Virus record (IMG/VR): IMGVR_UViG_2645727991_000023
Coordinates: 1-9,973 of that record
Length of the DNA: 9,973 nt
Strand: one strand, 5' to 3'
Source: a virus
Taxonomy: Duplodnaviria > Heunggongvirae > Uroviricota > Caudoviricetes
Below, one piece after another: positions 5,864-8,337 of the stretch. Made by a program: the position numbers and the translations under genes. Below the pieces are notes generated by a model. The model had not been told where the DNA came from, ran no database searches, and saw nothing but the letters and a program-made list of their open reading frames with translations. Numbering within the stretch: the stretch's first letter is position 1; each line of letters begins with the position of its first letter.

Positions 5864-7738
5864 ATGAGTAAAGTCTTTATTTGCGCCGCCATTCCGGACG
5901 AACAGGCAATAAAGGAAGAAGGTGCAGTCGCTGTAGCTACTGCCATTGAAGCCGGTGATGAACGTCGCGCCCGCGCAAAATTTCACTGGCAATTCCTGGA
6001 ACATTATCCGGCTGCTCAGGACTGCGCTTATAAATTTCTTGTCTGCGAGGATAAACCCGGTATACCCCGCCCTGCCCTCGATTCCTGGGATGCTGAATAT
6101 ATGCAGGAAAACCGCTGGGATGAGGCGTCTGCTTCCTTTGTCCCGGTTGAGACTGAATCAGATCCGATGAACGTCACTTTTGACAAGCTGGCCCCTGAAG
6201 TACAGAACGCTGTCATGGTTAAGTTCGACACATGTGAAAACATCACCGTTGATATGGCGATTGACGCGCAGGAATTACTGCAAGAAGACGTGGCTACCTT
6301 TGACGGGCACATCGTTGAAGCACTGATGAAAACGCCTGAAATTAACGCTATGTATCCGGAACGCAAACTGTTCGCTATCGGATGGGTTAAACACAAATGT
6401 AAGCCGGGTACCAAATGGCCCGAAATTCAGGCTGAATTACGTAACTGGAAAAAACGGCAGGACGCAGAGCGCAAAGAGACTGGAAAATACACGTCTGTTG
6501 TTGATCTTGCCCGCGCCAAAGCCAACCGACAGCACACTGAAAACCCAGCAGAAAAAATCCCTCCTGTAACTGCCGCCATTCATCGCGAATACAAGCAGAC
6601 ATGGAAAACCCTGGGCAGGGAGCTGGCCTACTATCTCTGGCCTGGTGATGCGGATGCCGGAAACATTGACGGCAGCATCCTTCGCTGGGCTAAAAATGAA
6701 GTTATCGCCAGAGATCGCGAAGACTGGAAGCGCATCTCCGCATCAATGCGCAAACAACCTGATGCGCTTCGCTACAGCCGCCAGACTATTTTTGGCCTTG
6801 TCCGTGAACGCCCGATCGACATTCACAAAGATCCCGTGGCACTGAACAAATACATCACTGAATACCTGACTACAAAGGGCGTGTTTGAAGATGACGAAGG
6901 AACAAATCAGGGCACAGCTAATACTCTCTCGTCGCCAGTACCAGAAACTGACGCAGTGGAAACGGCAATTCAGGACAACGAAAAAACCGAATGCAAAGTG
7001 GAAGTCGAATCATCTGTAGAGCGTGAGGGGCCGTTCTACTTCCTCTTCAGCGACAAGGATGGCGAAAAATACGGTCGTGCAAACAAACTTTCTGGTCTGA
7101 ATAAGGCGCTGGCTGCAGGGGCTACTGAAATCACGAAAGAAGAATATTTTGCCCGCAAAAACGGTACATACTCAGGTTCACAACAAAATACTGGTGCATC
7201 TGACACGATCGCACAACCGGAGCCGGTAAAAGTTACCGCTGACGAAGTAAACAAAATTATGCAGGCAGCCAATATCAGCCAGCCTGACGCCGATAAGTTG
7301 CTTGCTGTATCACGTGGTGAATTTGTTGCAGGGATTAGCGACCCGAATGATCCGAAATGGGTGAAGGAGATTGAAACCCGCGATTCAGTGAATCAGAACC
7401 AGCAAGAAACGGAACAGAACGACCAGAAAGCGGAACAAAACAGCCCAAATGCGTTACAAAACGAGCCAGAAACGAAACAATCCGAACCAGTAGTGCAACA
7501 GGAACCGGAAAAAGTCTGCACCGCCTGCGGTCAGAGCGGTGGCGGCAACTGCCCCGATTGTGGCGCTGTCTGGGCAACGCAACATACCAGGAAACATTCG
7601 ATGAAGAGAATCAGGTTGAAGCTCAGGAGAATGATCCGGAGGAAATGGAAGGCGCTGAACATCCACACAAGGAGAACACTGGCGGCAATCAGCATCACGC
7701 CAGCGATAGTGAAACTGGCGAGGCGGCAGATCCCTTAA
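5864..7738 (+). CDS. Large acidic early-operon protein (624-aa ORF as read); the last ~55 codons appear out of frame
   Basis: GAGG 10 nt upstream of the ATG. Long ORF with protein-like composition through CTACGQSGGGNCPDCG (CxxC-x7-CxxC) to about 7573; after that the frame turns into an R/K-rich tail typical of out-of-frame reading. A segment (...LLAVSRGEFVAGISDPNDPKWVK...) vaguely recalls RecE-family proteins; unverified. Confidence 0.6.
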   Translation: MSKVFICAAIPDEQAIKEEGAVAVATAIEAGDERRARAKFHWQFLEHYPAAQDCAYKFLVCEDKPGIPRPALDSWDAEYMQENRWDEASASFVPVETESDPMNVTFDKLAPEVQNAVMVKFDTCENITVDMAIDAQELLQEDVATFDGHIVEALMKTPEINAMYPERKLFAIGWVKHKCKPGTKWPEIQAELRNWKKRQDAERKETGKYTSVVDLARAKANRQHTENPAEKIPPVTAAIHREYKQTWKTLGRELAYYLWPGDADAGNIDGSILRWAKNEVIARDREDWKRISASMRKQPDALRYSRQTIFGLVRERPIDIHKDPVALNKYITEYLTTKGVFEDDEGTNQGTANTLSSPVPETDAVETAIQDNEKTECKVEVESSVEREGPFYFLFSDKDGEKYGRANKLSGLNKALAAGATEITKEEYFARKNGTYSGSQQNTGASDTIAQPEPVKVTADEVNKIMQAANISQPDADKLLAVSRGEFVAGISDPNDPKWVKEIETRDSVNQNQQETEQNDQKAEQNSPNALQNEPETKQSEPVVQQEPEKVCTACGQSGGGNCPDCGAVWATQHTRKHSMKRIRLKLRRMIRRKWKALNIHTRRTLAAISITPAIVKLARRQIP

Positions 7739-7794
7739 TTAAGGTGAATGGTCATCACAATCTCACATCCACCAGCAGAGCGGGGATTCATCTG

Positions 7795-8337
7795 ATGATC
7801 GACATTGAAACCATGGGAAAAAATCCCAATGCCGCGATTATCTCAATAGGCGCAATATTTTTCGATCCACAAACCGGAGATATGGGACCGGAATTTAGCA
7901 AGACCATCGATCTGGATACTGCTGGCGGAGTTATTGATCGTGACGTCATTAAATGGTGGCTGAAGCAATCACGTGAAGCGCAGTCTGCCATTCTGACCGA
8001 TGAAATCCCGTTAGATGATGCACTACTGCAATTGCGGGAATTTATCGCCGAAAACTCCGGTGAATTTTTTGTTCAGGTCTGGGGAAATGGAGCCAACTTC
8101 GACAACGTGATTTTACGCCGTTCATACGAACGGCAGGGGATCCCCTGCCCCTGGCACTACCACAACGATCGCGATGTACGCACAATCGTTGAGCTAGGGA
8201 AAGCCATAGACTTCGATGCCAGAACAGCTATCCCATTCGAAGGTGAGCGCCACAATGCACTTGATGACGCCCGTTACCAGGCAAAATACGTTTCAGCTAT
8301 CTGGCAAAAACTGATCCCGAGTCAGGCTGATTTTTAA
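7795..8337 (+). CDS. DnaQ-like DEDDh 3'-5' exonuclease domain protein (181 aa if initiated at ATG 7795)
   Basis: Exo I MIDIETMG, Exo II NGANFDNVI and Exo III HNALDDARYQAKY parallel the DNA polymerase III epsilon motifs. The frame is open upstream to 7375 with acidic protein-like sequence, so this may be the C-terminal domain of the upstream ORF. Confidence 0.75.
   Translation: MIDIETMGKNPNAAIISIGAIFFDPQTGDMGPEFSKTIDLDTAGGVIDRDVIKWWLKQSREAQSAILTDEIPLDDALLQLREFIAENSGEFFVQVWGNGANFDNVILRRSYERQGIPCPWHYHNDRDVRTIVELGKAIDFDARTAIPFEGERHNALDDARYQAKYVSAIWQKLIPSQADF

Follow-up and report, generated by a model that had tools for sequence, protein, structure and literature searches.

The gene at 5864-8337 of the window, by which we mean the whole 9,973-nucleotide stretch of viral DNA that was analysed, is a mutated copy of a gene type that has already been catalogued and described, and not a new system. 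On sequence comparison the intact protein is a mosaic of the RecE family, in which a folded three-part scaffold and the knuckle and linker of RecE are joined to a DEDDh exonuclease. Compared with Rac, the cassette formed by the RecE nuclease domain and recT is replaced by the DEDDh domain. The gene and its parts are as follows.

5864-8337, plus strand: the entire gene, which is Qin ydfE in unbroken form, the 'Tritos-type' lambdoid early-left exonuclease, here interrupted by a frameshift
5864-6553, plus strand: N1 head module, aa 1-230, predicted to be folded, alpha/beta plus helical (module map; AlphaFold2 pLDDT about 95)
6554-6898, plus strand: N2 middle helical module, aa 231-345 (sequence comparison, module map, AlphaFold2)
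7016-7213, plus strand: N3 small module, aa 385-450, 'REGPFYF...GRANK...EEYxARKNG', a predicted beta-hairpin and helix (module map)
7226-7363, plus strand: N4 module, aa 455-500, 'DKLLAxSRGEFVxGISDPNDPKW', near-identical to RecE 445-480
7361-7782, plus strand: acidic Q/N-rich linker, aa 500-640, RecE-homologous up to aa 626 (RecE 590)
7517-7561, plus strand: CxxC-x7-CxxC four-cysteine knuckle, aa 552-566, spaced as in K-12 RecE 517-531
7570-7571, plus strand: one-nucleotide deletion that takes the A from the Met570 codon (comparison with intact alleles)
7769-7776, minus strand: Chi site GCTGGTGG within the gene; the window has three in all
7789-8304, plus strand: DEDDh domain, DnaQ-like, a predicted 3'-5' exonuclease of the Rv2179c/DexA type, in the frame of ORF 7558-8337
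7801 (D647), 7807 (E649), 8101 (D747), 8251 (H797) and 8266 (D802), plus strand: catalytic codons, placed by alignment

In the window the gene is read as two overlapping ORFs on the plus strand, 5864-7738 (624 aa) and 7558-8337 (259 aa). The corresponding locus of E. coli 14EC001 is 99.8% identical, and the sole difference in the gene's 2474 bases is the A that is absent after position 7570 (GCTGTC-TGGG in the window against GCTGTCATGGG in 14EC001). Past the deletion, frame 1 runs into a premature stop at 7736-7738. When the base is restored the gene encodes 824 aa, and apart from the deletion it does not differ from WP_001473550.1, an intact 'exonuclease' of the same length. An 80-base probe spanning the site did not find the deletion in any complete E. 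coli genome, the best match being 98.8% (80 versus 81 bases). A programmed frameshift was considered and rejected, because GTC TGG is not a slippery sequence, because the extra base is present in all 3285 genomes that matched the probe, and because the gene around the site shows no other difference from an intact allele. The window copy is either inactivated by a private one-nucleotide deletion or carries a sequencing error. As it reads, it would yield a scaffold of 624 aa that lacks the nuclease, unless translation restarts at the ATG at 7645.

Decayed copies of this gene are common in cryptic prophages. Besides the broken copy in the window, the gene is split in vB_EcoM-606R7, and in K-12 Qin, which has the same protein front at the locus dicB-ydfD-ydfE ... 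intQ-rspB, about 306 codons are left before IS2, whereas the window copy is full-length with one frameshift. This decay would fit a gene with no current function, a RecE-type remnant hitch-hiking in prophages, and Zheng et al. 2025 (PMC12315714) call one- and two-gene modules 'somewhat suspect'. We nevertheless regard such a remnant as distinctly improbable. Full-length copies with all the catalytic residues are found in thousands of genomes and in the viable phages Tritos and HannyBb, and DEDDh fusions are found with two kinds of head and at 30-55% sequence divergence (e.g. P0123, P0137 and P0248). That full-length copies are kept and that the fusion recurs across heads and divergence indicates selection. 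The first-pass annotation had called the architecture unusual, which does not hold for its frequency, since a 3.2 kb query, 77% of which is the gene, is covered to at least 80% in 3380 of the 5426 complete E. coli genomes. Among the PHROGs the gene is number 2082, 'exonuclease', and Pfam has families for its front. In the literature searched we found no paper on Rv2179c together with prophages and no biochemical or genetic test of the protein, and the papers naming ydfE merely list it.

The first-pass annotation had also taken the nuclease to be of the DEDDh and not the PD-(D/E)XK kind, and the searches bear this out. The C-terminal domain matches PF16473 (Rv2179c-like) over positions 2-177 of the 177 in the profile with an E value of 1.7e-67 and a score of 227 bits, the cutoff being 27, and the repaired protein scores 223.7 bits. 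RNase_T is a weak second Pfam match on this domain. DUF3799, the PD-(D/E)XK core, has no match in the window protein, and PF16473 occupies that position. The residues of Exo I (DxE; D647 and E649), Exo II (D747) and Exo III (Hx4D; H797 and D802) are invariant with epsilon34 gp34, mEp460 gp26 and T4 DexA. The first two are 55-59% identical to the window protein over the DEDDh domain and lie in or beside a recombination module, the epsilon34 orthologue being inside erf-ssb-exo-abc2, but they are stand-alone proteins of about 185-190 aa without the RecE-type scaffold. T4 DexA and M. tuberculosis Rv2179c share the DEDDh fold family PF16473 with the window domain, but neither has an N-terminal scaffold. 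DexA is about 27% identical to the window domain and has extra loops and a temperature-switched dimer/tetramer, and Rv2179c is an exoribonuclease. T4 DexA (PDB 8KEL) is the only solved structure matched by sequence (E 5.8e-6), and in the same search of solved structures Rv2179c was not matched at E <= 0.01. The domain is most likely a Mg2+-dependent 3'-5' exonuclease that acts on DNA ends. Since PF16473 is named for the 3'-5' exoribonuclease of M. tuberculosis, and since DEDDh enzymes in general take many small nucleic-acid substrates, the domain could instead have an anti-defence or RNA-directed role and degrade RNA from its 3' ends or the oligonucleotides of immune signalling. We consider this very unlikely because the solved structure nearest to it in sequence is that of a DNA exonuclease, DexA, and because all the contexts found are neighbourhoods of DNA recombination, integration or excision.

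The front 626 aa of the protein form, by their alignments, a known region that has its homologue in Rac RecE outside the nuclease. BLASTP shows homology between aa 279-626 and RecE 294-590 (E 1e-64, with 37% identity over 420 columns). The part with the knuckle and the acidic linker, aa 470-626, shares about 80% of its residues with RecE 445-590. An acidic, Q-rich region with a Zn-ribbon-like CxxC-x7-CxxC motif had been noted ahead of the nuclease, and it is present, the 141 residues of aa 500-640 containing 22 E, 7 D, 15 Q and 14 N, but it is not specific to this protein because it is the linker of RecE. The motif recurs in 11 representative clusters and is therefore conserved and not due to chance. 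BLASTP finds no similarity beyond RecE residue 590, the DUF3799/PD-(D/E)XK core of RecE spans 614-849, and the DEDDh domain joins about 20 residues ahead of where that core would start. The RecE equivalog NF007259 scores 292.7 bits against a cutoff of 1269, with the match confined to the middle and the linker. The Exonuc_VIII head, PF06630, has no match in the window protein, and N1 stands in its place. N1 itself had no match in the Pfam release searched; the newer families YdfE_N and YdfE_C, named after Qin YdfE, cover the front. N2 is also part of RecE in HK225, Aeromonas phage pAEv1818 and Klebsiella prophages. In a 520-residue AlphaFold2 model everything from residue 502 onwards is predicted to be disordered, and a single-sequence model of all 824 aa was uninformative (mean pLDDT 35). 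Full-length RecE outperforms its isolated nuclease domain in linear-linear recombineering, and the front half of the window protein is the region to which RecE owes this advantage. The domain searches that had been proposed by the first-pass annotation therefore found a DEDDh domain at the C-terminus and, at the N-terminus, a RecE-type region that is catalogued without an assigned role (review PMC11611040), and neither result speaks against its reading.

The gene is part of the early-left operon (dicBF or pL-type) in a lambdoid prophage resembling Qin and Tritos, and its neighbours are as follows.

5168-5219, plus strand: dicF sRNA, in the upstream operon
5394-5582, plus strand: dicB, in the upstream operon
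5579-5770, plus strand: ydfD (DUF1482), in the upstream operon
8407-8658, plus strand: xis excisionase, DUF1233 (Pfam)
8678-9973, plus strand: int integrase, downstream of xis

The order ydfC-dicF-dicB-ydfD-exo-xis-int is common to K-12 Qin (with ydfE cut by IS2), Tritos and HannyBb. The remaining ORFs of the leftward operon, repressor-like, ydfC, dicB and ydfD, are all of 139 aa or less, and the rightward operon contains replication genes, the phage replication proteins being encoded at 793-2634. The assignment to the recE slot was confirmed by comparison with Rac, where recE and then recT are found at the corresponding position. With Rac RecE (exonuclease VIII of K-12) the window protein thus shares the early-left slot upstream of xis-int as well as the non-nuclease middle region, the knuckle and the linker. 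It differs in the absence of the PF06630 head and of the PD-(D/E)XK domain, in falling far under the equivalog cutoff, in its expected polarity, which is the opposite (3'-5'), and in having no recT partner. The first-pass annotation was also right that xis and int follow directly and that there is no annealase, for no gene lies between the exonuclease gene and xis. In the window neither an annealase (ORFs, Pfam and PHROGs) nor an SSB or anti-RecBCD gene was found. The neighbourhood survey found no annealase adjoining the DEDDh-type relatives examined (14EC001, an O145 strain, Tritos, P0145, which lies in a Rac-like kilR-ydaE context, and P0137) and none in the whole HannyBb genome, as judged by annotation, Pfam and PHROGs, which an unrecognised annealase family could escape. 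The gene thereby differs from the two-component recombinases of the SynExo, RecET or Red type in having no adjacent gene for a single-strand annealing protein. The PD-(D/E)XK forms in Rac, HK225 and pAEv1818 have an annotated recT directly after them, and P0130, a RecE-nuclease form, has at its 3' end an overlapping 275-aa gene of recT size.

Tritos gp27 and HannyBb CDS0033 are the same protein as that of the window, with 84-85% identity over the first 450 aa, and have the same gene order, no annealase and an apparent excess of Chi; the window copy differs from them in being frameshifted and in an integrated prophage. Among other relatives, P0137, P0145 and P0248 combine the PF06630 head with the DEDDh domain. 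The front scaffold is also found fused to the RecE nuclease, to a small 'QQLT' domain and to a 'SakLike' domain, a fusion that adjoins a Gam-like gene. The 'SakLike' domain, which in P0129, for example, lies at aa 470-700, is probably a Rad52-like annealase. It gave a sub-threshold match to Pfam Rad52_Rad22 in 10 of 15 members (best E 0.003), and hhalign gave a weak alignment with human RAD52 that is collinear over the core (E 0.023, probability 2%); a profile search of the PDB gave no match for it. The context of the stand-alone epsilon34 orthologue and the fusion of the scaffold to a RecE nuclease or a probable annealase support a link to recombination.

The neighbouring gene dicB protects against some phages, and the domain is detectably similar to T4 DexA, as described above. 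A stand-alone DexA homologue of E. coli, EcD ('HREX'), cuts T4 DNA, spares unmodified DNA and protects cells from T4 (PMC12153337), and the DexA-like domain might likewise serve in superinfection defence by degrading the 5hmC or glucosyl-hmC DNA of incoming T-even phages. We find this unlikely. EcD is short and stands alone, whereas the window protein is an 824-aa fusion with a 640 aa RecE-type scaffold. EcD has lost the Asp at DexA D90, which is Ala in it, but in an alignment to DexA the window protein has kept an Asp at D90, and the residue aligned to DexA S87 is Pro. The gene lies between ydfD and xis in a repressed early-left operon and is therefore expected to be expressed upon induction and not in the lysogen, and free-living phages carry intact copies. 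Membership of a known defence system was rejected, since PADLOC-DB 2.0 gave no match to a specific defence model but just one to a generic CRISPR-associated DEDDh model (E 7e-5). Another reading is a role in host takeover, in which, after induction, host or competitor DNA would be degraded from its 3' ends to supply nucleotides for phage replication. T4 DexA has such a role in scavenging host DNA (PMC12153337), and the early operon is shared with the host-directed dicF, dicB and ydfD. This is quite unlikely, however, because degradation of the host chromosome is not known for temperate lambdoid phages, there is no endonuclease partner to make ends, and the RecE scaffold and the epsilon34 context favour recombination.

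That a nuclease-only, annealase-free module would be unusual had been suggested, but such modules are already published with phage Tritos as the prototype. In Zheng et al. 2025 (PMC12315714) the class 'Tritos' has a nuclease only, without annealase, SSB or anti-RecBCD function, and has 7-21 top-strand Chi sites; DnaQ-like nucleases are said there to occur in lambdoid recombination modules. The window, which covers 10 kb of the prophage, has three Chi sites, all on the minus strand, where 0.32 would be expected (a count of three was reached in 1 of 200 shuffles), and HannyBb has five on the top strand against 0.85 expected and two on the bottom strand; these are enrichments of small counts. The same source states that 3'-5' exonucleases such as ExoI mostly inhibit recombination and do not promote it. 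This counts against a recombination role, as does the name of PF16473, which suggests a possible RNA substrate.

Our preferred reading, which we hold tentatively and at somewhat less than an even chance, is that the protein is a mosaic DEDDh enzyme for 3'-5' processing of DNA ends in phages that rely on host RecBCD and Chi. A self-contained exonuclease-annealase reaction is unlikely because these phages have no annealase and no RecBCD inhibitor and have an apparent excess of Chi. The RecE-type scaffold would carry the exonuclease to the usual destination of the scaffold's recombination effectors, and the exonuclease would trim 3' tails or flaps so that the phage ends become substrates of the host RecBCD-Chi-RecA system. 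Recombination of the trimmed ends by this system would then help to form concatemers and to package the DNA.

A broader proposal, to which we give a small chance, is that the YdfE/RecE front is a portable targeting module for interchangeable DNA-end effectors, namely, a 5'-3' PD-(D/E)XK nuclease with RecT, a 3'-5' DEDDh nuclease, a Rad52-like annealase and the small 'QQLT' domain. The DEDDh version would then mark a switch away from self-encoded single-strand annealing to host RecBCD-Chi recombination, in which the exonuclease would blunt 3' tails and let RecBCD load. If this is the case, it would give a function to the N-terminal region of RecE and likewise to what Zheng et al. call 'RecE-2' proteins. 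The gene is among the most widespread prophage genes of E. coli. What the scaffold binds, and the reason why a 3'-5' nuclease can stand in for the nuclease-annealase pair, would explain how this class of lambdoid phages recombines through RecBCD, and the protein is a possible source of new recombineering parts.

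The exo gene is read in the window as two overlapping ORFs, and the features that bear on its interpretation are as follows.

5864-7738, + strand: ORF 1 of the exo gene, 624 aa, overlapping ORF 2
7517-7561, + strand: CxxC-x7-CxxC, aa 552-566 of the repaired protein
7558-8337, + strand: ORF 2 of the exo gene, 259 aa, overlapping ORF 1
directly downstream of the exo gene, + strand: xis (DUF1233), then int
2813-2820, 2858-2865 and 7769-7776, all - strand: Chi sites (GCTGGTGG)

A 3.2-kb query around both ORFs is 99.8% identical to E. coli 14EC001, where the allele is a single 824-aa 'exonuclease' (WP_001473550.1) between a DUF1482 gene and the excisionase gene. 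Base-by-base alignment with 14EC001 showed that the sole difference in the 2474 bases of the gene is one A absent after window position 7570 (GCTGTC-TGGG in the window, GCTGTCATGGG in the 14EC001 allele), through which the Met570 codon is lost and a premature stop is reached at 7736-7738. The same deletion was not found in complete E. coli genomes with an 80-base probe across the site, the best matches being 98.8% (80 vs 81 bases), and because none of these genomes shares it the base was either lost in a private mutation or is missing through a sequencing error. A programmed frameshift was rejected because the site is not slippery. As read, the product would be a scaffold of 624 aa whose last 55 residues are out of frame, without the nuclease. 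GGAGG followed after a 2-nt gap by ATG 7645 (window 7638-7647, + strand) lies in the DEDDh frame and, speculatively, a restart there could give a 230-aa protein with the entire DEDDh domain, similar in size to the stand-alone natural homologues of ~185-190 aa.

The identity and architecture of the repaired protein, a RecE-like front fused to a DEDDh exonuclease, are in our judgment almost certain. The C-terminal domain matches PF16473 (Rv2179c-like 3'-5' exoribonuclease domain) over the whole profile with an E of 1.7e-67, RNase_T matches the same domain weakly, and D647, E649, D747, H797 and D802 are all present and are identical at the aligned positions of phage epsilon34 gp34, mEp460 gp26 and T4 DexA. 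The first-pass annotation had recognized this domain as DnaQ-like DEDDh, and judged from these residues its active site is intact. An RNA- or signal-degrading role, which would suit the exoribonuclease name of the family, seems to us very improbable. The sole PDB entry matched by sequence is 8KEL, T4 DexA, whose structure was solved by Kang et al. (NAR 2025, PMC12153337), and EcD, a stand-alone E. coli homologue of DexA, cuts hmC-DNA and protects against T4 (Kang et al., PMC12153337). A similar hmC-DNA defence (HREX) by the exo protein is nevertheless unlikely: the protein is a fusion, its gene sits in a repressed operon, and in the alignment it keeps an Asp at the DexA D90 position.

A domain search of the N-terminal region, which the first-pass annotation had proposed, gave no family for the front 640 residues in the local Pfam copy, whereas BLASTP revealed homology to RecE, and in precomputed annotation the protein carries PF27430 and PF27432 (YdfE_N and YdfE_C), which are newer Pfam families. 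Residues 279-626 align with residues 294-590 of K-12 RecE (E 1e-64), and from aa 470 on the identity is ~80%, over a stretch that takes in 'DKLLAxSRGEFVxGISDPNDPKW', the four-Cys knuckle (RecE 517-531) and the acidic tail. The NCBIfam exodeoxyribonuclease VIII equivalog scores 293 bits, far under its cutoff of 1269. The PD-(D/E)XK core of RecE (Pfam DUF3799) occupies 614-849 and PF16473 of the window protein starts at 643; taken with the end of the homology, this puts the point where the two proteins part no more than ~20 residues from the boundary of the domain. The CxxC-x7-CxxC motif is present ahead of the nuclease, as had been noted, and so is the acidic, Q-rich linker, with 29 acidic and 29 Q/N residues among the 141 of aa 500-640, but what had been taken as an unusual Zn-ribbon-like and acidic region is, by the alignment, RecE's own and not peculiar to the window protein. 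An AlphaFold2 model of aa 1-520, built from a 57-homologue alignment, is confident (mean pLDDT 81.9, 331 residues at least 90) and predicts folded blocks at 1-225, 245-345, 390-435 and 459-483 with disordered stretches between them and disorder from residue 502 to its end.

When 1.84 billion representative proteins were searched exhaustively with aa 1-569 (HMMER), only 226 clusters were returned at E <= 1e-3, and local phmmer on these sequences, plus Pfam checks, reveals a combinatorial family. The head is either aa 1-230 of the window protein or PF06630 of RecE; the shared middle corresponds to aa 230-345, 385-450 and 455-500, the Cys-knuckle/acidic linker being optional; and the C-terminal effector is (a) DEDDh, (b) RecE-type PD-(D/E)XK, (c) a ~300-aa 'SakLike' domain or (d) a small domain ending 'QQLTIAALQGLCANPA'. 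Next to each effector, in the relatives examined, are the following genes.

PD-(D/E)XK, in Rac, HK225 and Aeromonas pAEv1818: annotated recT
PD-(D/E)XK, in relative P0130: an overlapping 275-aa gene, identity unconfirmed
DEDDh, in the window, 14EC001, an O145 strain, Tritos, HannyBb and relative P0145 (Rac-like kilR-ydaE context): xis and int
DEDDh, in relative P0137: int alone
SakLike, in relative P0129 (L017:5001-7337): between a weak Gam-like gene and a Sipho_Gp157 gene
'QQLT', in relative P0126 (L018:5001-7109): xis-int directly, no partner gene

Thus, the unit exchanged is the nuclease domain plus recT for the DEDDh domain. The claims that recE then recT occupy this position in Rac, that xis and int directly follow the nuclease here, and that an annealase is missing were all borne out: the DEDDh relatives examined have xis-int or int and no annealase, and every ORF of the window's leftward operon besides the exo gene is at most 139 aa, with no annealase among them. 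A recombination role for the entire scaffold family is consistent with these neighbourhoods. We give little credence to the alternative that the exo protein scavenges host DNA. Simple decay, which the broken window copy might bring to mind, is also improbable, as full-length, catalytically intact copies are conserved with two head types down to ~30-55% identity.

The other effectors deserve mention. SakLike members (P0129, P0131, P0133, P0149, P0156, P0181, P0182, P0189, P0215 and others) share the invariant motif KKSLTDAxKKALSxLGFxADV, at which 10 of 15 members have sub-threshold Rad52_Rad22 (PF04098) matches, and hhalign against human RAD52 was collinear over the core, albeit weak (E 0.023, probability 2%); a profile search found no relatives in the PDB. 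The domain is probably a Rad52-type annealase, the PHROGs label 'exonuclease' on these fusions is probably wrong, and they may be the 'RecE-2' proteins of Zheng et al., which have no nuclease domain and no assigned role (PMC12315714). The fourth type, a small C-terminal domain ending 'LTYRQQLTIAALQGLCANPA' (P0126, P0152, P0221, P0236, P0237, P0239, P0245, P0249, P0254, P0270), belongs to PHROG 26058, function unassigned, and has no Pfam match. The representative protein P0195 (703 aa) runs from RecE 1 to ~527, within the Cys knuckle, in frame into a part that by eye resembles the C-terminal portion of RecT, which suggests a recE-recT fusion by deletion of the nuclease domain.

Upstream of the exo gene the leftward operon holds ydfC, DicF, dicB and ydfD as well as a repressor-like gene, and a small zinc-binding gene lies there on the opposite strand. 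The DicF antisense sRNA (5168-5219, + strand; Rfam RF00039, 75 bits, gathering score 48) is encoded between ydfC and dicB, and therefore a complete dicBF-type operon, ydfC-dicF-dicB-ydfD-exo, is present. The 68-aa ORF at 4315-4521 (- strand) has two CxxC pairs, only weak zinc-ribbon Pfam matches and in 14EC001 the annotation 'ECs_2282 family putative zinc-binding protein'; it overlaps a 118-aa ORF at 4180-4536 (+ strand) with a match to PHROG 21318, and database support thus exists for either strand. In the immunity region a YdaS-like Cro-type gene (3109-3390, - strand) overlaps a YdaT-family gene (2700-3125, - strand), and divergent from them is the 139-aa repressor-like gene (3491-3910, + strand; PHROG 5736, no Pfam match), which differs from DicA of K-12 Qin despite the same dicBF operon. 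The near-identical 14EC001 prophage (L001 10663-15202) is integrated beside rspB-rspA-ynfA-ynfB-speG, the attachment region of the cryptic prophage Qin in K-12, and the window is therefore probably a Qin-site prophage. In the K-12 locus, dicB-ydfD-ydfE-IS2-intQ-rspB, the ydfE pseudogene is the window's exo gene cut by IS2.

The earlier description of an unusual architecture without a partner was right as a description, but the feature itself is commonplace: of 5426 complete E. coli genomes, 3380 contain a stretch that covers 80% or more of the 3.2-kb query, 77% of which is the exo gene. The protein is PHROG 2082 'exonuclease', in some sources 'exodeoxyribonuclease encoded by cryptic prophage CP-933P', and full-length copies occur in the isolated phages Tritos, Evi, mEp460_ev081, HannyBb and PhiR42_1, with the window's gene order found again in Tritos and HannyBb. 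The window thus holds a mutated copy of an annotated gene, covered by Pfam and PHROG, of a class described in 2025. For 314 lambdoid phages, Zheng et al. (Genome Res 2025, PMC12315714) sorted the recombination modules into classes, and their class B includes the 'Tritos' type, four phages that carry a nuclease only, lack annealase, SSB and anti-RecBCD genes, and have 7-21 Chi sites on the top strand; modules of just one or two genes they regard as 'somewhat suspect'. HannyBb, whose complete genome is 45 kb, has no annotated annealase, and a scan of its larger unassigned ORFs against PHROGs turned up none. Chi sites appear to be in excess, on small counts, three in one orientation in the window vs 0.32 expected (three reached in 1 of 200 shuffles) and five on the corresponding strand of HannyBb vs 0.85, which fits this Chi-rich, anti-RecBCD-less class (PMC12315714). 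The epsilon34 order erf-ssb-exo-abc2 confirms the context given by Zheng et al. for the domain. 3'-5' (DnaQ-like) nucleases are, according to them, usually inhibitory to recombination (PMC12315714).

We tentatively propose that the exo protein would act as a 3'-5' exonuclease on DNA ends and, because these phages lack both an annealase and a RecBCD inhibitor, would serve host RecBCD-Chi-RecA recombination, possibly by cutting back 3' tails or flaps to give ends open to RecBCD entry; it would carry out no self-contained RecET-like reaction. Such end-trimming is a possible mechanism, in which our confidence is limited. The N-terminal domain of RecE is without known function, and linear-linear recombination is better with full-length RecE (2023 review, PMC11611040). 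The modular analysis is a testable lead on the N-terminal region of RecE.
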